A model generated the notes under the pieces. That model ran no database searches, had not been told where the DNA came from, and saw only the letters and a list, made by a program, of their open reading frames with translations. The translations under genes were made by a program, and so were the position numbers. Below are positions 9,301 to 64,000 of a DNA stretch of 64,000 nt, one piece after another (position 1 is the first letter of the stretch; each line of letters starts with the position of its first letter). The stretch comes from Chiloscyllium plagiosum (taxonomy: Eukaryota): NCBI RefSeq assembly GCF_004010195.1, contig NC_057750.1, positions 16,431,241 to 16,495,240 of the forward strand. Reading direction: 5' to 3'.

Positions 9301-12300
9301 TCTCCCTTTTCCCCACCGTGTTTTTCTCTTAATTAAATAAACATCTAATACTGTCTTTGACTCAAACTCTGAGTCTACCCCCACCACAATCCTATACAAT
9401 ATGTTCAACACCACAACTACTGGCTGTGTGAAAATGTTTTCTCTCGTCTCATACTTGCTTTCCCTAACTTACTCTGTCCAGACCCCTTATGATTTTTAAA
9501 CATCTATCAAATCTCCTTTTAGACACCTCTCCGCAGCAAACAATCTCAACTTCTCCAATCGCTCTTCACAACTGAAGTTTCTCAAGTCTAGAACTATTCT
9601 CATAAACTTCTGCACTTCCTTCTATATGTTTACATCCTTCCTGTATGTGGTACTCACAAATGTTCACAATACCCCAACTGAGGTCTAACCAGTGTCTTAT
9701 ACAATTCATTCTCTGGATCATAAATCCAGTTTACAAATCAACCTAAGCATTAAGTCACCCTAGTCTTGTTGGAAGACATGATATATCCTCCTTAAAGCTG
9801 TACAGGTTTTAACAGTGCCCTTCATACTTCACATTATTCTTCACCAGTGATGGTGTATTTCCAATTTTTAAGAAAAATGTTTCTTTATCGTACTGCCATG
9901 TTCCCTAAACTGGTTAGATATTGCTTTAATTTTTTAATAGTTCTAAAATAATGTTGTTTATTTTGCTTTCAGGTGTCGTATTGGTTGGCAGGGCCGTTTC
10001 TGCGATCAGTGTATTCATTACCCAGGTTGTCTTCATGGCACATGCCAACAGCCTTGGCAGTGCAATTGCCAGGAGGGCTGGGGTGGCCTCTTCTGCAACC
10101 AGGATCTCAACTACTGCACCAACCACAAGCCGTGCAAGAATGGAGCCACGTGTACCAACACTGGTCAAGGCAGCTACACCTGCACCTGCAAACCTGGTTT
10201 CGGTGGGACCAACTGTGAGACTGAAGTCAATGAGTGTGAGAGCAATCCTTGTAAAAATGGAGGGAGCTGCACGGTATGTGTCCATTGAAAGAGTTCTCAC
10301 TCTCTCTGGTTCAGTGTTCAATCTTCCCCCATAATTAATTCCTTTGATTTGTTTTTTATCCCCCCTTCAGTTCTGTTAATTCTCCCTAATATGCTGTGAT
10401 GTTGTTTGAAAACACACCCTCATTGTCACTTTGCTGTTCACGGAAGCTTGCTTTCTGCAAATTAGCTGCCACATTTGTCTACATTACTACAATGACTAGA
10501 TTCCCACTTCATTTTGCTGTGAAGTGTTATGAGCTATTCTGAGGTTCTGAAAGCTTATGGAAATGCAAGTGTACCTTTCCTTTTGCTATGACCACATCTG
10601 ATATAATTCCTTACTAGGCATGCAATAGTTCAGTATTTGACTCCCTTTTCTCTAGTACTGGACTCCCACAGTTTGCAACTGATCTCAGTGCAAGTCTAGT
10701 TCTGGGTTTCCACTAAGCATAAGTCATGAAGGGTCTCTTGAAGACACATTGAGGTTTTGGTTAGTTAAGGTCAGGGAAAGTCTAACTTTAACCTTCAACA
10801 ATTCAGACTTGAGATTGAAGCTGGATAGTGATACCGTTGTCATCCACACCCCTGGTAGAATGAGGGCAACCTTGGCCATGGTCATCTTGGCTCAATCACT
10901 GTTTTCTGAAAATAGGGGTGTGGATGTCAGATTAGGTTGCATCAAACTGTTCATGTAGTCAAACCTCACCAAGGTGTTAAGAGTTTGATTGTCACCTGTG
11001 GAACTGAACATGTGCTTGCAGGAAGTGAAACGAAACTTCATATTCTATGTATGTCTTTACATATATAGAAGCAAAGATGCTTCCATATATCCAGGTTTAG
11101 AAGCAAAGATGCAATGGCACATCTTTTAAAAAAACAAATGGCTCACAGTAACTTCATATATCCTAGTGAGAAAGAAGGATTCGAAGAAAAGGATAAGCTA
11201 TGGTTGACCATGGAAGTTAAGGTTATGATCAAATTGAAAGACAATATATGTAATGTGGCAAAGAGTAGTGGTAAACCACAAGTTTGGGAAAGATTACCAA
11301 AAAAAGAGAGAAGATAATCTTTGGTGGGCGGCACGGTGGCACAGTGGTTAGCACTGCTGCCTCACAGCGGCAGAGACCCGGGTTCAATTCCCGACTCGGG
11401 TGTGGAGTTTGCACATTCTCCCCGTGACTGCGTGGGTTTCCTCCGGGTGCTCCGGTTTCCTCCCACAATCCAAAGATGTGCAGGTCAGGTGAATTGGCCA
11501 TGCTAAATTGCCCGTAGTGTTAGGTAAAGGGGTAAATGTAGGGGAATGAGTGGGTTGCGCTTCGGCGGGTCGGTGTGGACTTGTTGGGCCGAAGGGCCTG
11601 TTTCCACACTGTAAGTAATGTAATGTAATGTAATATGTAGCTTGGCTTTTGCCACTCTGGCTGAAATCAGGCAACTCAGCATATCAGAGCTCAAACTCAA
11701 ACCTTGGGCTTTCTGATTGACATATTAATGACCACAAGTTTCACAGGAAGCCAAAGCCTTTTTTCTCCTCTTGAAATGCAATTTGGTTGACTGATTGGCA
11801 ATCCTGGTTTGCCCACCAACTCCCAGATGAGATCAGAAGATAAAGTCAATTACCTTATAAAATAAATGAACTGTTATCAAGTTAAAAAGCAAATTATTTC
11901 TTTATTTCTGGCAAGTTATTTTAGTTTGACAAAATCTACATTTCTTGTGTCCACATTCTCCAGTGAAATTTTTTCGTTAGGCGTCAGGAAGATCAATAAC
12001 TCGACCTCCACCTTCATCACTGATTCCATCCCCTTTCTGGCCTCTGCTTCTCTTGGAATTCACTTCTCTGAAGTTAAAAACCACACAACACTAGGTTACA
12101 GTCCAACAGGTTTATTTGGAAGCACGAGCTGTCGGAGCGCTGCTCCTTCATCAGGTGGTTGTGGAGAATAAGATCATAAGACACAGAATTTATAGCAAAA
12201 GTTTACAGTGTGATGTAACTGAAATTATATATTGAAAAAGACCTGGATAGTTTGTTAGGTCTGTCATCTTTTAAAATGAACATGTTGGTTTCAGTTCGTT

Positions 12301-15300
12301 CATATGTAAATCGTAAAACCTTTTTTTGAAGTTACATTCTCAAGTGAACTTTAACAATTGGTTTCATGTTGGCCCAGATAATGCATTGAAGGTGTGAGGT
12401 GCCCTGCGTGAGAATGTCTGTTCCCCCTTTGTTCACACTGATTCTAATCTAAAAAATGGATTTACAGAATCTTTGATCTTATACTCCACAACCACCTGAT
12501 GAAGGAGCAGTGCTCCAAAAGCTAGTGCTTCCAAATAAACCTGTTGGATTATAACCTGGTGTTGTGATTTTAAAATTTGTACACCCCAGTCCAACACCGG
12601 CATCTCCAAATCGTCATTCTCTGAAAGATACAATTCTTTACTGGTATCTTATTTGACGCCTAGCTGAGCTACTGATCCCATATTTCCTTTTGTGATCCTG
12701 ACTCAACTATTCCAGTGTATTTCTAAACTTCGGCTCATCCAAATCTCTGCTGCTTCTGTTCACTTTGAACCTTAAAAATGATAGAACAGGATACTAGGAA
12801 AATCTAGAACCAGCAGAGAAAAAACAAGAGATTCAGTCTCAGTGCACGGGTTATAAAATTTAAGGAAGAGCTTCCGAAAATAATGAAAAAAAGGTTAATT
12901 GAATTGTAGGAGATTAGAACACAAGAGAATAGAATGATTTGGAGGTGCTAGTGTTGGATTGGGATGGACAAAGTTAAAAGTCACACAACACCAGATTATG
13001 GTCCAACAGGTATATTCAGAAGCACTAGCTTTCGGAGCGCTGCTCCTTCATCAGGTGGTTCTGGAGTATAAGATCATAAGAGGATAGAATTAATGCTTCC
13101 ACAATGCAAAGCCGTGGATGCACCACAACTAGAGAAGTGACAGCATTCTGGGCACCATGCTTGCAAGGGTATTTACACCTTTGGAGGGAATGCAGTGTAG
13201 ATTCACTACAATGATATTTGAACTTCAGAAGTTAATTTGAGGTGAAATTACACAAACAAGTTAGTGCCCTCTGAAATGTAGAAGATTCAAGTGTGATTTT
13301 ATTGCAATGTCAAGAAGAACAGAGATTAGGAACCATTTATGTTGCTTGGAAAGGCTAGGACTAGAGGACATGATTGGAAAAATTTATGTAGAACCACACC
13401 TATCAGAAATAAAGTCAGGAAACCTTTTTGCATACAATGATGATAGATATTTGGAACTCTCTTCCACAAATGCCAATTAACTCTTGATCAATTATTAATT
13501 TTAAATCAAACAGTGATAGTTGTGTTAATTAAAGAAATGAAGAGATAAGTGGCAAAAGTAAGTATGAAATCAAGTGACAGATCAGCCTTGATCTCTTTGA
13601 ACTGGGCAGAACAGGGTTTAGGGGCTCGTTAGCCAACCCCTTATTCCTCTTACTCTTCCTTTTACCAAGTTCCACATTACCCTATGCTCACTGATCTACA
13701 TTTCACCTGGTTAAATGACACATGCAATTGAAAGCTGTGTCATTCACAAATTCAAATCCATTCACCACTCCCTTGGTTCACAGAACCACCTCCAGTCCTG
13801 CAACCCTTTAGGAACACCTGACTCTGGCCTTTTGTGCATGTCTCACTTTCTTTGCCTCACTATTGCTGGCTATGGCATTTTGTAAGCTCTAGAATTGCTT
13901 CCCTAAACTTCTCCACCTCTTGTTCGTCTATGTAAGTTGCTCCTTGAGACCAACCAAAGTTCTGGTCATTCCTCTTGTTGTCCCCTTCTTTGGTTTGGTG
14001 CCTTTTTATATCTGTTCTTGTGACTGAGAAGCACATTGGGACCTCCTCTGCATTAAGGACACTATACAGGTATAAGGTGCCATTATTAATGAGGTTTGCA
14101 TATACACATGAGCGTGTGATTTAGAGCAAGAGCAGGTCATTTAGCTCCTTAAGCCTGCGCTGCCATTCGATAAAGTCATGGCTGATCTGACTGTGACTGT
14201 AACTCCATAACCTGAATACCTGTTGCCCATCCCTAATTGCCATTAAGAAGGTAGTGGTGAATCTTGAGTATGACCAAATTATTTTTGAGCTGAAAATGTG
14301 TTGCTGGAAAAGCGCAGCAGGTCAGGCAGCATCCAGGGAACAGGAGAATCGACGTTTCGGGCATAAGCCCTTCTTCAAATTATTTTTGAGGCCATTTTAG
14401 AGGGCAGTTAAGAGTTGCACATTGGTGTGGGTTCACCTGTGGGCCAGACAGAGTTAGGCAGATTTCATTCCCTAAAGGACATAAATAAGCCTGTGTGACA
14501 GTCCATAGTGTTACGGTCATCATTACTGATCCTAGCTTTTGGTTGCATTACTGAATTTGGTTCTCAAGATGTTGTGGTGGGATTTCAGATGGTTGTATTT
14601 CTAGTCCATGCCTATGGACTAGTATCCAGAGACATGGACTAGAAATTATTAATCCAAAAACACAAACACTATATTACCAAATTGCAGAACAACAGTAAAA
14701 TATAAAATAACAACACTGAAAGACACAACTAACTAAATTTCGTGAAAAATCAACTTTGCTTTGATCCACAATCACCATTTGTGATATTTTTTCAATTATT
14801 TTCTCACCTTTACTCTTGGCCTCTCCTCCACTAGGGTCTTTAAGAACTGAGCTTGGTGTTGAGATATAGGAACAGCTACAATCACATTGAATAGTAAAGA
14901 AGGCTCAATGGGCCACTCCTACTCCTATTTTCTTCGTTTCTACATAATAATGTAAAATGAATATGAAATCATTGTTGATCGTTGTTAAAAACCATGTGTT
15001 TCACTAATGACCTTTCGGGAAGGACCCTTATCTGGTCTGGCTGACATGTGACTGCGATGTGGTTGACTCCTAAGTGCCCTTTGAAATGGTCTGGCAAGCC
15101 ATTCAGATGCAGGGGAATAAATGCTAACCTCGCCAGCTATGCCGATATCACATGAGAGAATAAAGTAAAAGTATAGAAATGGATCAGTCCAACTGTGGAG
15201 GTTGCTCTGCCTTTAAATCAGATCCTAAGAGATCTGAATCTCTATTTCACTTCCCCTCCTTAACTCCATATCTGCCAATATTTTTATGCAACAAAAATCT

Positions 15301-37035: not shown

Positions 37036-39120
37036 AGTTAGAGACAAAAAAATACTGCAGATACTGGAAACCAAAGTAGACAAACAGGAGGCTCAAAGAA
37101 CACTGCAAGACAGACAGCATTAAGAGGTGAAGAAGTCAACGTTTTGGGTATAACTCTTCTTCAGGACTGGGGGGTGGGTGTAGGGGGAGTTGCAGATAAA
37201 GGGGTGGGGGGTGCAGGGTGGTGAGTGAACACAGGTAGAGGGTACAGCCTGGTTGGTCGATGGGAGGAATGAATCCAGTTGGTAGCTGGAAGGAAGGGTC
37301 GATCAGAGGAATGGAAGGGAGGGGAAGGGACTGGGAAGGGAGTCATGGGACGGGATAGGAGGTTATTTGGGATGGGATAGTGGCACAGTGGTTAGCGCTG
37401 CAGCCTCACTGCACCAGAGATCCGGGTTTGATGCCTGCCTCAGCCAACTGTCTGTGTGAAGCTTACACATTCTCCCCGTGTCTGCGTGGGTTTCCTCTGG
37501 CTGCTCTGGTTTCCTCCTACAATCCAAAGATATGCAGGTTAGGTGAATTGACCATGCTAAATTGTCCCATAGTGTTAGATGCATTAGTCAGGGAAAAATG
37601 TGGAGAAATAAGGGAATCGGTCTGGGTGGGTTACTCTTCGGAGAGTCAGTGTAGACTTGTTGGGCTGAAGGGCCTGTTTCCACACTAGTGATTCTGAGTT
37701 CTAAGTTATTTGAAATTGGAGAACTCAATGTTGAGTCCTCTGGGCTGGAGGCTGCCCAGGGGGAGGATGAGGTGTTGTTCCTCCAATTTGCAATCTGATA
37801 CGGTATGGCACTGGACAAGGCCAAGGATGGTCATGTCGGAAAGAGAGTGGGAAGGGGAATTAAAATGGGCGATGACTGGGAGGTCCACTTCATCGGGTTT
37901 ATGCCCGAAATGTCGACTCTCCTGCTCCTCGGATGCTGCCTGACCGTCTGTGCTTTTCCAGCTCTTCGACTCTGATCTCCAGCATTTGCAGTCCTCACTT
38001 TTTCCTGTAGGTTTGGTCGTCCTGATGTAGAGAAGACCACATCGGGAGCACTGGATGCAGTAAACTAGATTGTAAGCGTGGCAGGTGGACCTCCGTTTCA
38101 CCTGGAAGGGCTGTTTGGGGTCCTGGATGTAGGTGAGGGGAGTGGTGTACCGGCAGGTTATGCATCTTTTGCGGTCGCAGGGGAAGGTATGTGGAGGTTT
38201 GGTGGGGTTGGTGAGGAGGGTGGCACAAACCAAGGACTGGCAAAGGGAACGGTCCTTGCGGAAGTCAGAGAGGGGTGGGGAGGGGAAGATATTCTTGGTG
38301 GTGGGGTTTAATTGGAGTTGGCGGAAGTGTTTAAGGATGATACATTGGATGTGGAGACTGGTGGGGGGGTAGGGAGGACATGGGGTGGTAGGTGAGGACA
38401 AGGGGACCCTGTCTTTATTGTGTTTAGCGGGGGGGAGGGTTTAGAGCAATGGAGCGGAGAATGGAGGAAGCAGAGCAGAGCGCTGTCTGGATGACAGAGG
38501 GAGAAAAAGCACATTTTTCAAAATAGGTGGAAATCTGGGGTGCTTGGGTGTGGAATGTCTCTTTGTCCGAGCAGATGCAGCAGAGGCAGAGGAATTGGGA
38601 GAACGGGATGGAGTTCTTGCAGGATACTTGGGTGGGAGGGGTGTAGTCCAGATAATTGTAAGAGTCTGTGGGTTTATAGTAAACGTCCGTCTGGAGATTG
38701 TCACTGGAGATGGAAATGGAGAAGTCAGGGGAGGGAGGTGTCAGGGATGGACCAAGTGAATTTGAGGGCAGGTGGAAGTTGTGGGCGAAGTTAATGAACT
38801 GCTCCAGTTCAGCCTGGGTGTAGGATGCTCTCCTTCCTCACCCATCCATCGCCACTATACACCGAACCCCTCCAATTCTCCCTCTGCCTCACCACCTCAT
38901 ACCCCCGCACCCCTTCCCACACCCCCACCCCACTCCCCAGCTCAGCCTCCTCCCAATCTTCTTTCTCTCCCACACCCACTTCTCCCCACCACATCCAGCC
39001 ATCACCAACCAGGTCGTACACTCTACTTGTGTTCACCTATTCCTATCTCACCACCCACGCTCCCCCGATCTGCAGCTCCCCTTGCACTTTGGATTCTAGC
39101 ATCTGCAGCTTTATTGTCTC
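37036..39120 (-). mobile_element. Penelope-like retroelement (5'-truncated, decayed RT C-terminus plus GIY-YIG endonuclease) with inverted pLTR copy
   Basis: ORF 37706-38401 has NLVYCIQCSRCGLLYI...HFNSPSHS...LEEQHLILPLGSLQPRGLN; 38830-39120 is an inverted copy of the 3' end; TSD tttgttatt(t/g)taacag at 37020-37035 and 39121-39136. Confidence 0.85.
37370..37704 (+). mobile_element. HE1-like SINE (older) inserted into the PLE at its stop codon
   Basis: Same family; TSD gttatttg (37362-37369 and 37705-37712). Confidence 0.8.
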
Positions 39121-39247: not shown

Positions 39248-39463
39248 CAGGGAAAGTGAAGACTGCAGATGCTGGAGATCAGTCAAAGAGTGCGGTGCTG
39301 GAAAAGCACAGCCAGTCAGGCAGCATCCGAGGAGCAGGAGAATCGATGTTTTGAGCATAAGCCCTTCATCAGGAGATGAAGGGCTCAGGTTTGAAACGTT
39401 GATTCTCCTGCTCCTCAGATGCTGCCTGACCGGCTGTGGTTTTCCAGCATTGCACTCTTCGAC
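39248..39463. mobile_element. Family A fold-back insert
   Basis: Inverted arms meet at ttcatcaggagatgaa; TSD taatgaaaca (39238-39247 and 39464-39473). Confidence 0.75.
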
Positions 39464-40342
39464 TAATGAAACAGAACAAGATAGCTAGCATAATATTAGA
39501 TCACACTGATCACAGTAAACTGATCTCCCATACAGTGTATCTTAATAACCACTCCTAACACTCCATGAGCAATAAATTATTTGAACTTGCAGTGTAGTGA
39601 CAGTACTACATAGGCAGGTCTTTGTGCACATGAAGTTCTCACAAATGGCAACCTGCCCAGCTGATTTCCAGTGGTGTTGGTTTAACAAAGAACAAACCTG
39701 TTCGTCTAGGGCTATGGTATTCTTAACACTCCCATAAATGTGTGTATGGGCCTTGGTTTAATATCTTATCCAGAGAACAATGCCTGAGGCAATTCAGAAT
39801 ACTCATAATGCTGCATTCCATATTAGTCTAAATTGTGCTTGGACTGCCCTGTGAGGCTCAAACTCTCAACTTTCTGATAAATTTGAGAATGTTTACTTTT
39901 GAAAGGCATTAAGATAAGAATGCCAGATAGGAACACAATCAATATTTACAGGAATTGAAACTCTTTTTCTTATTTGAACAGAATTGACAGTCGAGCCTGA
40001 ATGGCTCACAAAACAGCATCACAAAATGGTGACAGCATTCCCCCATCCCTATGCTCGGCCAGTTATCCTGCAAATCTTTCCTCTTCAGGTCCTTAAACAC
40101 AATTGATTCTGCTTCCCCCACCCTCTCAGGCAGTGCAAACCGGGTACCAAGAGCAATTGCATAAAATGTTTTTTTTCTCTTGTCACCATTGGAGGCCATT
40201 TATTCTTTTTCTAATCTGGTTTTCTTGCTCTTGATCCTTTCACCAATGAGAACACATTTCCCTATCTACTCTGTGCAGGACCCTCATGACTTTGAATATC
40301 TGTCAAATCTTCTCAATCTCCTCTTTTCCAAGTGAAGCTCTA

Positions 40343-41275: not shown

Positions 41276-42153
41276 AAGAGGCATTTAGCCTGAAAGGGTC
41301 AACTCAGAAGCTTTACAATAGCTCCAGCCACTGATATATAAATGGCTGTCTTGGGGAAGGACCAGTCAGATCTATATTAGTTCTAAGCCAGTCTAACAGA
41401 AGTGTAGCATAGACACAATTACCGTCCCTTAGGAGATGACAATGTCTCTTAGCCAGTATTATTGTAGTGAACCATCCCCAATTTAAGCAACCTCTTGTCT
41501 TACCGTTAAACAACAAACTCAAGTGTAACTCACGTACGTGACTTTTCGGTTGAAGATGTACTTGTTGCGAGTCCTTCGCTATTCACTTCTAGTAAGCCCT
41601 ATAAATATACAACACAACTCATGGAGGCAAATGTACCCAAAGAAGACCTTTGCAGAACTAGGAGTCAGCAGACAGTGTCCCTTACAACAGAGAGCAGCAG
41701 TCTCAGCTTCTTCTTTCTATCCATGGAAGTGAAGGTCCTCATCCTCAAAACCACTCATTCCTGTGAATCTTTTCTGTGCCCTCCCAATTGCCTACTCGTC
41801 GTTCCACAAAGGTGATGAGGTGAATAATGAGCAGAGAGCTGTTCCATCCTGCAGTGTACAGCCCAATGGGAAACTGTGGAGTAGGGTGTCATTAATATGC
41901 AGAGGGATGCCATACATAACTATAGCCTCAATGGTAGAGACCCTGCTAGAAGGTCAGAAGGTCAGAACTGGAGCAGTTTCAGGCAGAGATGCCAACAGCT
42001 GAATCATTATGCGCGCATATATTATGAATCAATCCTGCTTGAAGAAAATCTTTGAGGTCAGACCTGTGATTATCTGATGAGTTGAACCCCGTACTAAAAC
42101 AAAACCAGGTTGAATCATAACTTTCAAATGAAATAGGACACAATTTAGAGAAA

Positions 42154-42395
42154 GTGAGGACTGGAGATCAGAATTGAAGAGTGTAGTGCTGGAAAAACAC
42201 AGCCAGTCAGGCAGCATCCTAGGAGCAGGAGAATCCATATTTCGGGCATAAGCCCTTCATCAAAATCAAAACATCGATTCTCCTGCTCCTTATAGCTCGT
42301 TCCTATGAAGGGCTTATGCCCGAAACATTGATTCTCCTGCTCCTTGGATGCTGCTTGACCGGCTGTACTTTTCCAGCAGCACATTCTTCAACTAA
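42154..42395. mobile_element. Family A fold-back insert with an extra partial unit
   Basis: Inverted arms; TSD aatttagagaaa (42142-42153 and 42396-42407). Confidence 0.72.
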
Positions 42396-42880
42396 AATTT
42401 AGAGAAACACTGAATAAACTTATGTCACGCCAGTTTCATGCCTTGAATTACGTGACAGCAGTGAAAATCTGGGAATGGCGCAAAAAATGTTACCGAGCAG
42501 TGGTTGGGTCAGAAAGGTTGAGTTGTTGACCAGGGAGGAGTAAATATTTGTTTGCCAGTGCTGAGGGTTTTAAAATACTTGGGTTTGCCATAAAAAAAAG
42601 GCCCATTTTCATTTCACAGGCTGCACTCACATCAGCATGGAATAGAAAATTATCCCACCTATTGACAGAAAGAAATTGCACATGTTTAATAGGGCCTTGC
42701 AGTTGTCAAAACTGAGTCCAAGCTGACTTGATGGTCACAACTCCAAAATCCTGATCCGCAATCCCACTGGGGTCACAATCCACATTTTGGGAAGCCCTGT
42801 GTTAAATACTTGAAAAGGAAAAGTAGGCCAGGCTACATGGGAAGAACGGAACTAATTTGATTGTGCTTTCAAAGAGCCAG

Positions 42881-43087
42881 AAATGTGTTGCTGGAAAAGC
42901 GCAGCAGGTCAGGCATCATCCAGGGAACAGGAGAATCGACGTTTCGGGCATAAGCCCTTCCTGAAGAAGGGCTTATGCCCGGAACGTCGATTCTCCTGTT
43001 CCCTGGATGCTGCCTGACCTGCTGCGCTTTTCCAGCAACACATTTCCAGCTCTGATCTCCAGCATCTGCAGACCTCACATTCTCCTC
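42881..43087. mobile_element. Young family A fold-back insert, about 80-bp near-perfect inverted arms centred on the hammerhead core
   Basis: Arms 42881-42960 and 42966-43045; perfect 15-bp TSD ctttcaaagagccag (42866-42880 and 43088-43102). Confidence 0.85.
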
Positions 43088-43635
43088 CTTTCAAAGAGCC
43101 AGCACATGTATGAAGGCTGAATAGCCTCCTTTTGAGCTGTATCATTCAATGCACTGATATCATGTGACACTTCCTTCGTGAGAAAACGCTAAGAAGGATC
43201 ACTACTAATCCAAGTTGATTTTAATTCAGTTTCCCATCACAGTGAGTGGTTAACACACAGATGCTAGGCATTTCAATTGGAGACAAAATTTGGGTAGCCT
43301 GAACAAGACCTTATAATGGAAGCACTAAGCCTGTAGTACACAGCAGGATCCCACACTGTGGGGAAGGATGTGTTCACTGCTTTTGTTTTAATGACATGCG
43401 TGAAGGAGGATTGTTGATGGCCCATTGGGTGATTCCCTGGGCCTTTAACAAACAATGTCACAGGACATTGAAGATGATAAGATCATCATGACTGTGGGAG
43501 ACCAACCAGCTCAAAGGTCAATTGTTTTCAGAAAACCCGAAAATTCCCTTCAGCATATAGTTGTTTGTTAAATGACTCTGAGATTTTCATTTCCCTTGAT
43601 GTTGAATAATTTTGTTTATGGGGAGACAATTTTCT

Positions 43636-46427: not shown

Positions 46428-47238
46428 ACAGGTTCATAGTTCCTTGAAAGTGGAGTCACAGATAGATAGGATAGTGAAGAAGGCGTTTAGCATACTTTCC
46501 TTTATTGGTCAGAGTATTAAGTATAGGAGTCTAGATTAGAATGGTGCTGGAAAAGCACAGCAGATCAGGCAGCATCCGAGGAGCAGGAAAATCGACGTTT
46601 CGGGCAAAAGCCCTTCATCAGGAATAGAGTATAGAAGTATTGAGTATAGGAGTCAAGAAGTCATATTGCAGCTGTACAGGCCATTGGTTAGACCACTTTT
46701 GAATATTGTGTAAATTCTAGTTTCCCTCCTATCGGAAGGACGTTGTGAAACTTGAAAGGGTTCAGAAAAGATTTACAAGGATGTTGCTAAGGTTGGAGGG
46801 TTTGAGCTATAGGAAGATGTATAGACTAGGACTGTTTTGCCTGGAGTGTCAGAGGCTGAGGGGTGACCTTATAGAGGTTTATAAAATCATGAGGGGCATG
46901 GATGGGATAAATGGACAGTCTTTTCCCTGGGGTGGGGGAGTTCAGAACTAGAGGGCATAGGTTTAGGGTGAGAGAGGAAAGATATAAAAGAGGCCTAAGG
47001 GGCAACTTTTTCACACAGAGGGTGGTATGTGTATGGAATGAGGTGCCAGAGGAAGTGGTGAAGGCTAGTACGACTGCAACATTTAAAAGGCATTTGGATG
47101 GGTATATGAATAGATAGGGTTTGGAGGGATATGGCCCAGGTGCTGGCATGTGGGACTGGATTGGGTTGGGATTTCTGGTCAGCATGGACAAGTTGGACCG
47201 AAGGGTCTGTTTCCATGCTGTATATCTCTATGACTCTA
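46428..47238 (+). mobile_element. CR1 3' fragment nested in an older minus-strand CR1 (about 45310-47410)
   Basis: Same subfamily as 40343-41275; itself interrupted by a hammerhead insert. Confidence 0.9.
46592..46622 (-). ncRNA. Minimal hammerhead motif (family A), intact core, in an insert within a CR1 RT fragment
   Basis: Minus strand C-CUGAUGA-A-GGGC uuuu GCCC-GAAA-CG-UC-GA; 19-bp near-perfect TSD at 46513-46531 and 46636-46654. Confidence 0.72.
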
Positions 47239-48855: not shown

Positions 48856-50196
48856 CTTCCAATGAAACCTGTGTGATTTTTAACTTTAGACAAATTATAG
48901 ACTGTGAAATATTATGTAATGGGAAATGCAATTTCAATAAATCGCTAGAAACTAAAGAATTCTACTGCACATGTGCCCCTGATCAGCTTATAATACTCAT
49001 GAGTTGAAATTTATGGCTGAGACCCCTGCCTAAATTTTTTTAAAATGCCTCTGAACAACCCTGTTTAGATATCTCTGCTCCATCTATTCTGCAAAGCTTT
49101 CTCTTGCTGTTCCACAAATTGGCAGCTGTGCTCAGGAATTCTGGTCCTATACCTGTCCTCCTCTCAACTTCTCTCTAACTTTTGGAAGCTTCTTAAAATT
49201 CTTTGATCAAGCTTTTGGATACCTGCTCTAATATCTGTGTTAAATGCTGTTTGATTATGCTCTGTGAAGCTCTCTTGAAAGTCGCTACAATGTTAAGACG
49301 TGCTACATAAGTACAAATTGTTGAGTTCTTTTTCTGAGAATCTCATGAAAACTGGTTATGCAGTGTTTATCATATTGTTATTTGTAGGAGCTTGCTACAT
49401 GAAAATTGACTGCTGTGTTTCTTACTGAATGCGTTTCAAAATTTCTTTACTGGCTGTAAAATGCTTTGAAATGTTCTGAGTTAGAAACACTATCTAATAG
49501 TACAAGATTTTCTTGTTACTTCCAGGCAGTAGTCATTAGTATCTATTATTTTGCCCCACAGATCTACTATTGATGCTGTAATGCTTGGGACACCATTTCC
49601 TAAGTGCCTCAATTTTGTCTGTTCTCACCCTCCTCTTTGAAAGTCTCTCTCAAGACCAAGCTACATCAGTGCCCCCTTAAAATACCTTGGCATCAACTGG
49701 CATCTCCCAGGCATAAGATGAGAGCCTGAAAATATGCCTGCAGCCTGGTTCCAGTAAGTGAACATGGAGATGGAATTAACGCTGCAAAGGGATTGGAGAG
49801 GAGAGATTGGTGGTGAGAGAGGAAAAATAACAAGTGCAGTGGGTTAATGCTCACAAAAGTTTTGGTACAGACCAGGAAGATTCCAGGTTTACACTGAATG
49901 TTGATTAGGACAACATTGTCGCTGAACAAAGATTCCTGATCCTTATTCACTGAGTCAGAAAATGTCCAGCTGTGAAAAGTGAAGGAAGTTATTAGGTTCA
50001 ATTGTTGTTGAATTTTTCTAATTCTTACATGGAATGTGGGCTTGATTGGCAAGGTCAGCTTTTAATGCTTGTCCCTACTTGTCTTGACCTGAGCAGCTTG
50101 CTAGGCCATTACAGAGGACGGTTAAGAATCAACCAGATTAAAATTGGTCTGGAGCCTGGTAGGTCAAGTCAGGCAGCATCCAAGGAGCAGGAGAAC

Positions 50197-50226
50197 CGAC
50201 GTTTCGGGCATAAGCCCTTCTTCAGG
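50197..50226 (-). ncRNA. Minimal hammerhead motif (family A, CUGAAGA variant) in fold-back insert of about 50168-50345
   Basis: Minus strand CUGAAGA-A-GGGC uuau GCCC-GAAA-CG-UC. Confidence 0.65.
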
Positions 50227-52217
50227 AGGCTTATGCCCGAAACGTCGATTCTCCTGCTCCTTGGATGCTGCCTGACCTGCTGCGCTTTTCCAGCAACACA
50301 TTTTTCTGTTCTGATCTCCAGTATCTGCAGTCCTCACTTTCTCCTAGTCTGGTACGTCAGGCCAGATAGGGATTGCAGATTTCCTTTTGAACCAGGAGGG
50401 TTTTGTTTTAGCAATCAACAATAGTTTGATGTTCAGATTGAGACCAGTGGTCCTTCTAATTATCTTTACTGCTACTCTGTAGCAGCATCTTCCAAAACCA
50501 GAAGTTGACGCCAATTGCCGCTCACAGAACATAGGAGTGCTGCATGTACACAGCTGAGCAGCTTAGCGGGAAAGTTGATTGAAATTAGCTTTCAATTCAA
50601 TTTTAATTTTAATTAATTAAAATCAAATTTGTGGTGGAATTTGAACTAATGTTGTGACCATTAGCCTGGGCCTTTGGATATACTTTTGGTCTACCCAAGA
50701 TCTTATAGTTTAGATTCACAAATAAAACTAGAGTTTTAGACAGCAGAGAGGATCAGAACTGAAGACAATAAGTAGACCTGCCCTCTCTGCACAGTGGCCT
50801 TTTGCTTTGAAATTAATTTTCTTAGTTTCCTCCAAATCTAGGACACTTGGCATTTAGCCTCTCCATCCTGACGTAGCAAGGAAGGAAGTTGGGCCCCGAT
50901 GCTGCAGTACTAGTGCTTCAGAAACAGTTAGCAAACACTAGTGCCTGCTCAGTTAACCTTCCACTCCAAGGGTAGTGTGTTTCACTCAAATAATTACAAT
51001 TAGATTCTGTAATCTCACTTCACTTAGTTTCCCTTTCTCAATATTTATACTGTTTACATTTTATGAATCTGGAGGATCTGAGGGGGCAGTTTTTGGCATT
51101 GCTTTCTCATTGGTGGATGTATCCTAAGTGGACACCAATTATTTTGAACTACAACAAGCTGCATTCATGTAACACCTTGAATGTCGAACAGTGTCCCAAA
51201 GTATTTCACATGTGCAAACTGCTAAGGTCTAACACACAAGGAGATATTAGGACAGGTAACAAAATGCTTGGTAGGTTTTAAGAAGTGCCTTAAAGGAGGA
51301 GGGTGGAAGGTTTTAGGGAAAGGGGGTTTCAGAGCCTGGGGCCTGGGCAGCTGAAGGCATGGCCAGTAGTGATGGAAAGCAGATAAATGCATGGCTGAGG
51401 AGCTGTTGTATGGGAAAAGGATTCTCATTTTTGGATCATTGGAATCTCTTTTGGGGAAGAAGTAACCTGTACAAGAAGGACGGATTGCACCTAAATTGGA
51501 AGGAGACTAATATACTCAGAATAGTAAGGATATGGAATGCTTTGCCTGCATCGGTAGTAGAATAGTATGGCAGGGCGGCGCAACATTGAGGGCTGAAGGG
51601 CCTGTACTGCGCTGTAATGTTCTACCTTCTATGTTCTAAGAATGGAAATTGGAGAAGGCCCAAGAGGCCAGAATTGGGAACAGACCAATCAAGTGGAGGT
51701 ATTTACAAATATGAGGAAAGATGATTCCATGGAGGAATTTTAAAACAAAAGATTAAACGTAGAATTGGAGTCACTGATGAACCAGCAGCCAGTCTAAGTC
51801 AGCAAACAGGATATTTATACGAGAATGAAACTTAGGGTGTGAATTAGGTGACTGCCAACTTTGCATGAGCTCTGGCTTTGTAAAGTTAGGTCAACGCATG
51901 GGTACATTTCAACAGCAGAGACAGGATTCAGAGAAAGGCAATGATGCAGTATGGGAGTAGGCAAGTGTTAATGACAGACAGAATACAGTGCTGATTTGCC
52001 AACAATCCACTTAGGGACAAGCAGTTTCAATGAAGTTTCAGACACTGTAAACATCTTTGCTCAATAAGGGTCAGATTAAGTTTCAGAGCCCTAACTAATG
52101 ATCTGTATTAGTAATAATTGACATTAATTGACAAATAGGATGATTGATTGTCATCTAAATACCAAATTAAAAATCACACAACGCCAGGTTATAGTCCAAC
52201 AGGTTTAATTGGAAGCA

Positions 52218-52252
52218 CACTAGCTTTCAGAGCATCGCTCCTTCATCAGGTG
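52218..52252 (-). ncRNA. Minimal hammerhead motif (family B) in fold-back insert of about 52165-52378
   Basis: Minus strand CAC-CUGAUGA-A-GGAGC gau GCUCU-GAAA-GC-UA-GUG (one G-U pair). Confidence 0.68.
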
Positions 52253-53154
52253 ATAATTCGATAGGCGACGCTCCGAAAGCTAGTGTGTTTCCAATTAAAC
52301 CTGTTGGACTATAACCTGGTATTGTGTGATTTTTAACTTTGTACACTCCAGTCTAACACCAGTATCTCCAAATCATGACATCAAAATACCAGTCTACCTG
52401 CATCTACTGAGCTTCTTACCCAAATGTAAAAAAATCTGACCTGCTTTGAAAGTTTTATTTTCAGGAAAACATTTTATTCAAAACAGTGTAGTTGCCTTTA
52501 AACAGTCATAATTTTCCAGCCCAAGGCTAATCACGGAACTATGGAATCATAACACACGTTGGGAGGCCATTCAGCCCATCATGCCTGTGCTGTCTTTTTG
52601 GAAGATCTGTCCTTTTGCCCAGCACTTACCCCTAAAGCTCTCCAGAGTCCTCCCCCCCCCCCCCCCAAGTATTTATCTAATCCCGTTTGCAAGTTGTTAA
52701 TGAATTTGCTTCTATCACTATTTCAGACTGCATATTCCAGATCTTAAAAATTCAAAAATATTCTCCTACTTTTCATTACCTTACTTCTTCATCATAGTTC
52801 TGTGTTACTGACCATCCTGTCAATTGAAACAATTTTCCCTAGTTACTTGAAAACTCTGATTTCTGTTATGATTTATTTTGACAATGCTTTGAGAATATTT
52901 CTGATATCTCTCAAGTTTTCAGTAAGCTGCCTCAGGTCATTGCTCATTAATTTATAAATGCAGCAAACATGCTGGGTTTCTTTGGGAACATTAAGGGATG
53001 TGTATACAGTGTACACTTATTGTTTATTGTCATTCAGTGACTCCAGATGATAAATAGCCAGAGGATATGTACAGCAGTATAGCAATCTAACAGTAGATAC
53101 ATTTTCAGAACCTGAAAGGAATTGGTAGGGTGGATACTGAAAGGATGTTTCTAC

Positions 53155-53872: not shown

Positions 53873-56800
53873 CTTGTGGAATGCAGGGACGCAGTTTCAA
53901 AATTAGGGGTCTCCCATTTAAGATGGAGATGAGGTGGATTTGTTTTCCCTCTGAGGGTACTGAGTCTTTGGAACTCTTCCCTAGAAGGATGTGGACTCAG
54001 AATTATTGACTGTTTTAAAGCAGAGGTGGATAAATGCGTGACAAGTGAGGGAATCAAGGAGTATGGAAGATGGGCAGGAATGAGGAGTTGAGGCCACAAT
54101 GTGAGCAGTCACGATCTTATTAAATGGTAGAGCAATCCTGAAGGGGCCCAATGACCAATTCCTGCTCCTTTCTCATGTGTATCTACAACAGATGTAAAGA
54201 AGGTCAATGTTTTGTGAATGGTGGAAATGAGACAGTCCTAAACTTGAGGGCTAGTATGAAAAATATGTTTTCCTCAAGAAAGTACAGTTGCGACAAACTC
54301 ACACCAGGCAGGTAAATGATTATGGATTAAGCCCGTCTCCTTTAATGAGGACTCAGTGTGAAAGGGACACTGGATTACTCTGGCCCCAGACTTCGAGATA
54401 AACCAGCTGGAGACGAATTACAGTCGTCTGCTTAAGTGCATTGGAGAGAAGAGAAAAGAAAATTTGAACACATTTGCAGTTTGATTGTTTTCCACTGCGG
54501 GATGTTATTCAGCAAATTAAGTTAAAGTTACAGAAAAGTTGAATGAGGATGGTAATCCAAGTCGACCAAGCTTCAAACAGAGGCGGAAAAAAACATGTAT
54601 CTTTGCTTAATTCTGCCTGTCATTCGGAACATCACTATATAATTCACTGCTCTGCAAAATCTGAATGTTTTATGTATTCACATCCCTCTCCATTCCCGCA
54701 GATCAACGAACTTCAGATTTATTAATAGGATAAACTGGTTATTTCCCAGTACCTTCAGCTTGAAGCTTCCTTTTGTAGTGGATTTAGGGAGGAGGGAGGA
54801 CCTCAATGGAATTATTAGCAGTCCCTTGAATGGAGCTAGTCTGTCTGACCCGTCTCTCGAGACAGGCAGGTGGTAAATTGAATAGGCAACCTGCTGGGAG
54901 TCGTACAGGCCAACCTCGGTGACCTTGTTCATTCTAATTGTTCCTCAGTGACAGGTGATTGGCGAATTAAACACATTCTGCCCAGCTATTTTTTTATTTA
55001 TATATTTTTTTCTCCTCTTGTCTGCAACAGTTACTTATCAATTCTAATTCCCCCTCCCATTCATCCAGAAATCATTCATTAATCTTTGTTTCAACCACTG
55101 GCATCTGCTGCAGTTCTCCTCGTGCATTTCTGAATTATCCACAAACCTATTTCATCCCCTTTTTATATATGTGTGTTTTGTTTTAAAGTTTTGGTATGAT
55201 CACTAAAAGTTTATGCCAATAGTGAAATTTGTAAAAAAAACTTTGTATATATTTAATTGCTGTTCCTGTTGACAAGGCCCTGTCAGTTTTGTTCACATTT
55301 TTTCCTACTGAAAAATAAAAAGTCCTCACAATTTGTACTCGTTTCTGTCATTCCTCTCCGTGCAAACCTCGCATGCCTAATTGCTTTTGAAGTGTGGATA
55401 TCCTGGTTATACAGATAGAACTTAGCAGTTTACACACAACAAGATTCCGCCACTTGAATTACATCAAGTGACAATGATGAACAGCATAGGGCAGGTCATT
55501 CTGCCCATCTGGTCTGTGCCTGCCTGTCTTTATGCGCTGCATGCTCAGTAGTAGCAGTGTGCACCATCTACAAGATCCATTGTGGCAACTCACCAAAGCT
55601 CCTCAGATAGTACTTTTTCAAACCCATGACCACTGCCACCCAGAAGGACAAGAGCAGCAGATACGTGGGACAGCACAATTTGCAAGTTCCCATCCCAAGT
55701 CACTTACCATCCTGACTTCAAGAGTAATTGCTGTTCCTTCACTGTCGCTAGGTCAAAGTCCTGGAACTCCCCTCAGAATAGCATTGTGGATCTATGTAAA
55801 CAAAATGGATTGCAGTGGTTCAAGAAGGTAGCTCATCAAGGGCAGCTAGGGATGGGCAATTATCCAAGTAATAATCTTTTGTCTCATTCGTATGTGGGAT
55901 ATGGGTGTCACTGATTAGGCCAGCATGTATTGCCAATCCCTAATCAACAGGGGAAGGCGATGAGCAAGGCCTTCTTGAACCGCTGCCGTGAATTTGGTAT
56001 AGATACCTCTCACAATGCTCTTAGGGAAGGATTTTGAGGATTTTTATGGAGTGACACTAAAAGAAGAGCGATATATTTCCAAGTCAGATATAAATTTGAG
56101 AGTCTTGGAAGGGAACATGATGATGGTGGTGTTTTCATGTATCTGCTGCCCTTGTCCTTCTAGACAGTACCTGTTGTGGGTTTGAAAGAGGCTGTAAGAA
56201 ACCTTGGTGAAATTCTGCAATGCATCTCTTAGATAGTACGCACTGTGGTTACTGTGCACCACTGGTGGAGAGAGTTAATGTTTTTGGATGTGGTGTTAAT
56301 CAGCAAGCTGTAATGGCCTTGATGGTATCAAGCTTCTTGATTATTGTTAGAGCTGTCCACATCCAGGAAGATAGAGAGTATTCCACCACACTCTTAACTT
56401 GTGCGTCGTAAATAGTGAACATGCTTTGAAAAGTCAGGAGGTAAGTTACTGCCAGATTTCTAGCCTTTATCTGCTCTTGTAACCACAGTATTTATATAAG
56501 AAATCCAGTTAAGCTTCTGAGAAGCCCCAGGATATTGATAGGGGTGATTTCAGTGATGGTAATGCCAATGAATGTCGAGGGCTATGTTAAATTCTGTCTT
56601 GTTGGAGATGGTCATTGCTTGCCACCTATGTGGTGTGAATGTCGCTTGCCAGCCCAGACCTGGAAATTGTCCAAGTCCTGTACATTTGGACATTCCTCGG
56701 TATCTGAGGAAATACAAATTGTCCTGAACATTGTGCAGCTGTCAGCGAGCATTGCCCACCTCTGATTTTATGATAGAGGTAAAGGTCACTGATGAAGCAA

Positions 56801-63480: not shown

Positions 63481-63489
63481 TCCATCTTA

Positions 63490-63693
63490 TTTAAAAATCA
63501 CATGATGCTAGGTTATGGTCCAACAGGTTTATTTGAAAGCAATAGTTTTCGGAGCACTGCTCCTTCAAAGGCGACCTAATGAAGGAGCAGCACTACGAAA
63601 GCTAGTGCTTCCAAATAAACCTGTAGGACTATGACCTGGTGTTGTGTGATTTTTAATTTTGTCCACCCAAGTCCAACGCCAGCTCTTCCACAT
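63490..63693. mobile_element. Family B fold-back insert (decayed)
   Basis: Inverted arms meet near the core at about 63565-63580; degenerate TSD catc(c/t)atctta. Confidence 0.65.
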
Positions 63694-64000
63694 CATCTAT
63701 CTTACAGTCTTATAGATGGAACTTGAACTCAAGCCTCTTGGCTCAGAAGTAGGGATAGTAACAATGCACCTGGAGAGGGGCTAAAAGTGTTACACGTTCT
63801 ATTATTGTAAAGGATTGGCTAAGGTAGCAACAGCTGTCATTAAATACATGTAACTCATTAATCATTGCTACCCAATTAGATTAGGTATGAGGATAAAGAA
63901 GGCTTCTAATTGGCTGAAAACTTAAAGCAAAGCTTATCTGCAGTTTAATGCTTCAGTGCCTGCAATCCCACTGAGTATGTGTGGAGGGGAGAGAGAGAGA

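Follow-up and report, generated by a model that had tools for sequence, protein, structure and literature searches.

The window, i.e. the whole stretch of 64,000 nucleotides that was analysed, contains insertions built from hammerhead-bearing modules of two families, A and B (Table 1). Element positions are numbered with C3 of the CUGANGA box as +1 (window 42961 in the palindrome at 42866-43102, hereafter the named copy) and the preceding base as -1. A sequence-only reading of the window had described 42881-43087 as an inverted duplication with arms of about 80 bp and a 5-nt spacer inside a perfect 15-bp target site duplication (TSD), and this description was matched base by base: the right 80-bp arm (42966-43045) differs from the left arm at 2 of 80 sites, and the TSD 15-mer occurs only twice in the whole window. 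The TSD adjoining the tail-less arm matches element positions +86..+93 at six of eight bases. The GAAA box of the named copy carries one A-to-G change, and the predicted hammerhead cut lies between 42988 and 42989 (by inspection, using standard hammerhead numbering). The same architecture had been noted at five further loci, and all of these are indeed head-to-head pairs, flanked by TSD-like repeats of 10-16 bp with 0-2 mismatches. The family B insertion at 12072-12612 has the same design as the palindromes, but its joint lies away from the ribozyme on one side.

Table 1. Hammerhead-bearing insertions in the window and anatomy of the named copy (positions are those of the window; +/- numbers in the first column are element positions)
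Feature	Coordinates	Strand	Remarks
Left TSD, 15 bp	42866..42880	+	15/15 match to 43088-43102
Tail-less arm, +6..+85	42881..42960	-	Outer end corresponds to the putative proximal reverse transcription start (about +90)
Joint microhomology TTC, 3 nt	42958..42960		Right arm -3..-1 is the reverse complement of left arm +6..+8
Tailed arm, -3..+127	42958..43087	+	Begins one base inside the predicted RNA start (-4)
Spacer, +1..+5	42961..42965		Between the two 80-bp arms
Minimal hammerhead core	42961..42988	+	CUGAAGA, unpaired A, stem II GGGC-UUAU-GCCC, GAAA box, palindromic ACGU
One-sided tail, 42 nt, +86..+127	43046..43087	+	Spans the gap between the two putative reverse transcription starts
Right TSD, 15 bp	43088..43102	+	Same 15-mer as left TSD
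Family A head-to-head pair	39249..39464		Tail on left arm; 10-bp TSD
Family A pair	42152..42393		33-nt filler with partial third copy; 12-bp TSD
Family A pair	about 50165-50345		Short tail-less arm with end near +60; 11-bp TSD, 1 mismatch
Family B pair	52160..52376		10-nt filler; 16-bp TSD-like repeat, 2 mismatches
Family B pair	63489..63696		12-bp TSD, 1 mismatch
Family B head-to-head insertion	12072..12612		One long arm (about 380 nt, extends upstream of the ribozyme); 9-bp TSD
Family A single arm from -4, tail-less	46533..46629	-	19-bp TSD (1 mismatch); sits in another repeat
Family A single arm, +2..+95	14284..14379	-	15-bp TSD

A third hammerhead family, with CUGAAGA and a different stem II, was found on the minus strand at 37050-37170 and 38440. 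A 244-aa frame about 1.3 kb upstream of it ends in a linker (TFPC..) resembling the one in Penelope-like elements (PLEs), and this family is probably a truncated PLE of another family. Two old copies of a 300-bp repeat, inverted and 120 bp apart, lie at 55542-56258; they are unrelated to the hammerhead families and show about 70% identity to other genomic copies. The insertions lie near a gene that resembles those for Delta-like Notch ligands: a 229-aa frame at 23094 (plus strand) contains an EGF-repeat exon followed by a transmembrane-like stretch.

The palindromes are real TSD-flanked insertions, and flank junctions, empty site and joint-crossing raw reads agree on this point. The flanks 42600-42900 and 43060-43400 are each joined to the element in independent contigs of the same organism (X2). 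Inspection of the empty site, which had been suggested as a check, gave a single TSD in a related organism, where single contigs in two runs from two studies (X9 and X10) skip 42866-43087. Fourteen raw reads of another run, with 12 different starts, cross head-to-head joints of the family between -4 and +8, and 151 loose ends of raw reads lose homology at -4. Perfect hairpins are prone to mis-assembly and the centre of the named copy is spanned by no sequence record; however, the two differences between its arms, its flanking TSDs and the independent runs just described leave a negligible probability for an assembly artefact.

Judging from the coding sequences into which longer copies lead upstream, the arms appear to be the ends of Neptune-type PLEs. 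In L036, L055 and L110, family A hammerheads are directly preceded by sequence coding for reverse transcriptase (RT) and a GIY-YIG endonuclease. Pfam RVT_1 was detected in L214 (E = 1.2e-6; 28.8 bits, just below the cut-off of 29.6) and Pfam GIY-YIG in L216 (E = 8.8e-5), whereas a decayed RT piece gave 0 matches in Pfam and a sequence search of PDB with the RT piece gave 0 matches. In family B, a GIY-YIG-like motif was recognized by eye upstream in L133. These findings agree with the PLE origin that had been proposed for both families. A C-x4-C-x2-C linker is present in 7 of 16 GIY-YIG motif matches (e.g. CHRRNCKTC in L216, L207 and L279) and absent within 50 residues in the other nine; a CX2-5CxxC linker between RT and endonuclease is a mark of the Neptune clade (PMC8557442). 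In the tandem copy L232, the junction between pseudo-LTR (pLTR) and ORF lies behind an upstream partial copy and the sequence past +127 continues into the ORF, indicating that both outer arm ends, +127 and about +90, lie within the RNA and, together with the RT and GIY-YIG sequences upstream of hammerheads, that the module from hammerhead to tail is present at both ends of the full element. L217 contains two pLTRs around an ORF, with a gap. No intact full-length element or ORF was found among 20 loci picked for long frames, which were mostly assembly gaps.

By inspection, both families carry the features of minimal type I hammerheads described in PMC4209133, namely the CUGANGA and GAAA boxes, an unpaired base before stem II, G10.1-C11.1 and a palindromic 15.2-16.2 (ACGU in A and AGCU in B), and cleavage is predicted after +28 (before +29) in A and after +29 (before +30) in B. 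The Rfam hammerhead family gave no match at the gathering score or at E<=10; the Rfam miRNA matches to the palindromes are far under the gathering scores and reflect the hairpin. Several longer arrangements of the elements were also observed. L055, L074, L096, L113 and L014 contain head-to-head insertions of 1-3 kb with long arms, a one-sided tail and a 12-15-bp TSD, often with assembly gaps in mid-element. L023 (minus strand, 1700-2030) and L251-L256 represent one locus in at least six near-identical copies, in which two modules are arranged head-to-tail, the first running from the start to about +205 and the second from the start to about +90, i.e. a retrozyme-like short tandem in a duplicated segment.

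The ends of the arms were analysed in 120 stretches of 10 kb, taken at round coordinates from contigs C1-C32, together with the window, which had been picked by the finding itself and so introduces a small bias; N excluded, this makes 1.22 Mb. Using fifteen real copies as references for arm detection, 306 arms (221 A and 85 B) were collected, and 125 candidate pairs, some of which had been picked by similarity, were reduced to 65 by retaining sampled loci only, requiring a TSD no shorter than 10 bp and counting each insertion once. This corresponds to a density of 53 TSD-flanked pairs per Mb, or about 190,000 genome-wide by extrapolation, and 54 of the 65 pairs are 260 bp or shorter. The outer ends are bimodal, at about +90 and +126 in A and about +85 and +121 in B. 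In young A copies, the last templated base is at +88..+93 in 51 of 56 tail-less ends and at +125..+127 in all 79 tailed ends, the latter being partly an effect of selection. A tail of about 35-42 nt is present on exactly one arm in 64 of the 65 pairs. The most frequent TSD length among the sampled pairs is 14-15 bp in A and 10-14 bp in B, which suggests that the nick spacing differs between the two endonucleases. A TSD was detectable for 33 of 156 single arms, and simple-looking copies often hide an inverted arm of 10-20 nt that starts at the other fixed site. A and B elements insert into or beside one another: a family A copy lies inside a family B copy in L007 (1422-1627), and the two are adjacent in L051 (about 1863-2325). 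Small templated duplications of the target were found between the TSD and the element start in L030, L007, L152 and L174 and at 46630-46640 of the window; they resemble the fillers produced by microhomology-mediated end joining.

The inner (5') ends of the arms cluster 4-8 bases upstream of the hammerhead core. Among ends located between -60 and +55, 110 of 175 in family A (binomial p = 1.5e-31) and 52 of 72 in family B (p = 9e-20) fall within -14..+11; the breakpoints are not uniform, and the clustering of inversion points that had been predicted for both families is strong. The sharpest peak in A is at -4/-3 and the peak in B is broad; 58 of 200 A ends are at +12..+55, and several short arms reach -5..-12. 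ORF-bearing copies behave similarly: among 24 such copies (L251-L256 being excluded as duplicates of one locus and the core match of L257 as spurious), the core is kept in 14, of which 13 start at about -13..+7 and the remaining one is a tandem, and 10 are shorter. The turn had been placed at or beside CUGANGA. Its position stands but can be refined: the turn lies some 30 nt upstream of the predicted cut, at the ribozyme's 5' edge, which is why it was seen beside that box. The hammerhead marks the place of inversion by its position only, and its predicted cut is unused.

A single extra base accompanies this end. Genome-wide, the base before the exact young-A motif starting at -4 is the template C in 19725 matches, G in 4426, A in 2064 and T in 837, part of the A count coming from two arms joined through AT/AT (paired matches 22 bases apart). 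In long copies, where the upstream template is intact, the same site has T in 70, A in 18 and G in 12 among the matches listed (100 of 115), showing T to be the usual mutation there. At the next base upstream, G is not in excess (C 55, G 24 and A 21 among the matches listed, 100 of 3588). In family B, the base before -8 is G in 71, T in 18 and A in 11 among the matches listed (100 of 179). These tallies of listed matches were made by eye, as was the assignment of the G in 30 G-start copies: it is common to the target in 8 and to the inverted arm in 7, follows filler in 6, is a point change in 1, and in 8 comes from neither the target nor the inverted arm. The copies in which the G is common to the target or the inverted arm leave some of the excess ambiguous. 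A template jump from the GATTC word that follows the cut was rejected as the source of the G: in the 30 copies, the bases before the G do not match what precedes the cut, and the G is also present in family B, where that word is missing; point mutation was rejected as well, with about 14 copies having the long upstream motif versus 4426 in total.

The base at -4 in A and at -8 in B is an A after a pyrimidine (TC-ATTC in A and CC-ACAA in B, the hyphen marking the border), and the TCATTC of family A fits the initiator consensus. Initiator-like motifs have been described in rotifer pLTRs (PMC3846280), the start site of Drosophila virilis Penelope lies within the pLTR (PMC8557442), and an untemplated 5' G is an accepted mark of a copied cap in L1 and SVA (PMC4859970). 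We infer that the extra G at -5 in A and before -8 in B is a copied RNA cap. Raw poly(A) single-cell reads (run X21) showed no pile-up of starts on a family copy; they map to both strands, as expected from passively transcribed copies. Run X22 gave no matching reads on that copy. Among the 27,052 young-A arms that reach -4, 16,137 (60%) read on through -6, indicating that the template of many arms extended upstream of the start; truncated copying of the 3' repeat could account for short arms.

Three other origins of the inner ends were weighed against a capped start. The sequence-only reading had suggested that RT meets an RNA end left by self-cleavage of the hammerhead, an idea consistent with the conserved motif and its predicted cut at +28/+29 in A and +29/+30 in B. 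No excess of 5' ends occurs there, however: within 2 nt of the cut, A has 7 ends against 6.5 expected from neighbouring positions and B has 0 against 2.3, most arms contain sequence from both sides of the cut, and cleavage is dispensable in vitro for the PLE protein PAc (PMC11167929). Given the standard cut position, the end counts refute a cleaved RNA end as the source of the 5' ends, and this origin is very improbable. Alternatively, RT might stall at a folded or protein-bound hammerhead in the 3' pLTR, add an untemplated C and be rescued by a second primer, in which case the RNA would not end at -4. The peak covers the ribozyme's 5' half, stem II is predicted to form, and the 60% read-through of young arms would also be accommodated, but RT moving 3' to 5' should halt at the 3' foot of the structure (+21..+33) and not past it, and ORF-bearing copies share the same end position. 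Moreover, a plain stall at the ribozyme, as proposed in the earlier reading, leaves unexplained why G is in excess at a single position only and why, in two families whose offsets differ, that position is an initiator-like dinucleotide; a stall is unlikely on these grounds. Processing of a longer transcript by nuclease cutting, recapping or splicing could also create an RNA end at -4/-8, and the D. virilis intron, which runs up to the 5' end of hammerhead helix I, an equivalent position, offers a precedent (PMC4209133). Nevertheless, long copies have no AG acceptor before -4 or -8, and the bases before the G vary by copy, which argues against a shared upstream exon and makes processing decidedly improbable. 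In the literature outside subscription papers, no PLE inversion points tied to a capped start or to strong-stop DNA were found.

The palindromes are by-products of reverse transcription, as had been supposed, and the arms themselves indicate how the second copy is made. Among 54 pairs with short joints and one tail, there are 21 in which the tail-less arm extends further 5' by 12 nt or more, 10 in which the tailed arm does, and 23 in which the two are within 12 nt of each other. The arms carry the same subfamily variant at 490 of 543 diagnostic sites in A (0.60 when shuffled, 0.81 within subfamily and 0.94 for background) and at 250 of 316 sites in B (0.67, 0.72 and 0.90, respectively); this comparison took in similarity-picked loci. 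Sharing of variants points to one RNA or one source, and copying of one RNA twice, copying of two RNAs of one source and homogenization of the palindrome are indistinguishable in this respect. The joints use short self-complementary words near the start, with 20 types among the 26 catalogued. The TTC/GAA joint of the named copy occurs in 2 copies in the sampled catalogue, and one and the same joint was seen in more than one subfamily and in pairs tailed on the left as well as on the right.

Self-priming, in which one cDNA (or an antisense transcript, as proposed by Arkhipova et al. 2013, PMC3846280) would form a hairpin at the ribozyme and copy itself, can draw on this published proposal, the self-complementary joint words, the shared haplotypes and the 23 symmetric pairs. 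A fold-back copy must, however, nest in the strand that it copies, and the 21 pairs with a further-reaching tail-less arm (e.g. one with the tailed arm from +78 and the tail-less arm from -4) do not; a tail-less first strand cannot create a tail, and the end at +90 is also found in single-arm copies. Arm asymmetry and the single tailed arm of 64 of the 65 pairs refute self-priming as the general route, and we regard it as improbable. In the sequence-only reading it was paired with re-priming, and only the latter survives, being closest to the evidence in the form of two primings, one per target nick; these fit the tail, the asymmetry and the hidden short arms. The abundance of TSD-flanked pairs (about 53 per Mb) and their small size would also be expected of a palindromic unit, MITE-like or retrozyme-like, that multiplies in one piece. 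Such a unit is extremely improbable, since joints vary by copy, the same joint recurs across subfamilies and irrespective of the side that bears the tail, the ends inside the TSDs are asymmetric, and there are also versions with long arms. No copies sharing one private joint together with private mutations were seen in the sample. The unpaired tail at one end and the heterogeneous joints led us to reject a MITE, i.e. uniform terminal inverted repeat copies of one master.

We favour, with fair confidence, a mechanism in which reverse transcription is primed close to the 5' end of the RNA by each of the two nicked target strands and the two cDNAs run off the predicted capped start and join head-to-head; run-off at the cap is the likely reason why inner ends cluster upstream of the hammerhead. 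Transcription would begin at the initiator-like start in the pLTR, making the hammerhead the first 35 nt of the RNA. The GIY-YIG endonuclease would nick the two strands about 14-15 bp apart (10-14 bp in B), as reflected in the observed TSDs. One nick would prime at +125..+127 and the other at +88..+93, where the outer ends are found, leaving a tail on one arm. Each cDNA would run for at most about 130 nt to the cap, which would often be copied as one extra base. The cDNA 3' ends would then pair via self-complementary words of 2-4 nt located at the RNA start (AT/AT, TTC/GAA and GGC/GCC are seen in the joints) or be joined with small fillers, microhomology-mediated joining being the presumed repair route, and one very short cDNA would yield a copy that looks simple. 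This scheme for Neptune elements agrees with the biochemistry of PAc, although PAc belongs to the Poseidon clade. In vitro, PAc, a predicted dimer, nicks and extends both strands from two internal starts that flank the tail, and it requires RNA up to 172 nt into the ORF (PMC11167929). By analogy, this need for RNA beyond the tail suggests that priming may occur at the 5' module, close to the cap.

A wider reading, possible but rather doubtful, is that PLE replication itself proceeds through a target-primed strong-stop, with a dimer priming both cut strands at two sites, some 90 and 127 nt away from the cap, and a long or full-length copy arising only through a cDNA jump; if priming always occurs at the 5' module, the short cDNA has to jump for a long copy to form. 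Were this strong-stop reading true, the jump would go to the 3' repeat of the RNA or to another RNA, the stretch from start to cut would act like a retroviral R region, and pLTR, tail, inverted 5' repeat and palindromes would be products of one reaction, the palindromes being failed jumps. Six short, internally deleted copies (L264, L267, L276 and L278-L280) contain the 5' module and 80-110 nt of the ORF start joined to a second module that begins near -4..-10, and are candidates for template jumps. A strand-transfer scar, G at -5 in long copies, had been set beforehand as a prediction and was not seen: the counts at -5 given above (T 70, A 18 and G 12 among the 100 of 115 matches listed) resemble those at a control C at -7 (T 76, G 14 and A 10 among the matches listed, 100 of 142). 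The absent scar lowers the strong-stop reading, but trimming of the extra base may hide it. Retroviral minus-strand strong-stop DNA is likewise a short cDNA that is primed near the RNA 5' end and runs off the cap. Unlike in that system, the primer here would be target DNA and not a tRNA, the transfer step is only hypothetical, and no RNase H is known.

The inversions share with L1 twin priming (Ostertag and Kazazian 2001) two target-strand primers (putative here), an inversion within a TSD, joints that show microhomology and small indels, and an untemplated G at full-length 5' ends (PMC4859970). As expected for two nicks, both the outer ends, at two fixed sites, and the inner ends are independent, which points to two priming events. 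In L1, however, the two cDNAs are adjacent, non-overlapping and start from the poly(A) end (PMC4859970), whereas the arms described here overlap (by about 85 nt, up to about 90), start internally and end at the putative RNA 5' end. No poly(A) was found at the outer ends of the sampled pairs, and the earlier statement that simple L1-type twin priming does not apply, because both arms hold the same sequence, is correct. The ribozyme is the same minimal hammerhead as in other metazoan PLEs (Cervera and De la Pena 2014, PMC4209133), for which solo motifs and opposite-strand motifs 100-700 bp apart have been noted (PMC4209133; bioRxiv 10.64898/2026.07.22.740005). Non-LTR retrozymes are head-to-tail tandems thought to cycle via cleavage (same sources); the units here differ from them in being head-to-head or single, with ends that ignore the cut site, although short head-to-tail tandems of the module exist elsewhere in the genome.

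Close parallels lie among PLEs themselves; for the origin of their pLTRs, tails and inverted repeats, one paper proposes self-priming and another shows two internal starts in vitro. Insertion units of endonuclease-positive PLEs have an inverted, 5'-truncated pLTR, an optional tail of 30-40 bp at one end and a TSD (PMC3846280; PMC8557442), and the present insertions resemble them in head-to-head arrangement, one-arm tail, TSD, palindrome at the joint and initiator-like pLTR motif. They differ from the published units in being mostly devoid of an ORF, about 200 bp long and so numerous (some 190,000 when extrapolated) that they document the reaction on a large scale, and in having joints at the putative RNA start with an extra G; their asymmetric arms argue against the self-priming of Arkhipova et al. 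2013 (PMC3846280). For annotators, these palindromes are neither MITEs nor miRNA hairpins, despite weak Rfam miRNA matches. PAc from Anolis carolinensis (Frangieh et al. 2024, PMC11167929) likewise uses two internal RT starts that bound the tail, located about 110-130 nt downstream of a hammerhead whose cleavage is not needed; the main text of that paper gives no cDNA end positions and does not link the two starts to palindromes or to the cap. The head-to-head architecture, the one-sided tail and the two internal starts have thus already been published. The present analysis adds evidence on mechanism: the hammerhead cut leaves no mark on the 5' ends of copies, and the data point away from cleavage and fold-back and towards two-nick priming with run-off at a likely capped start.
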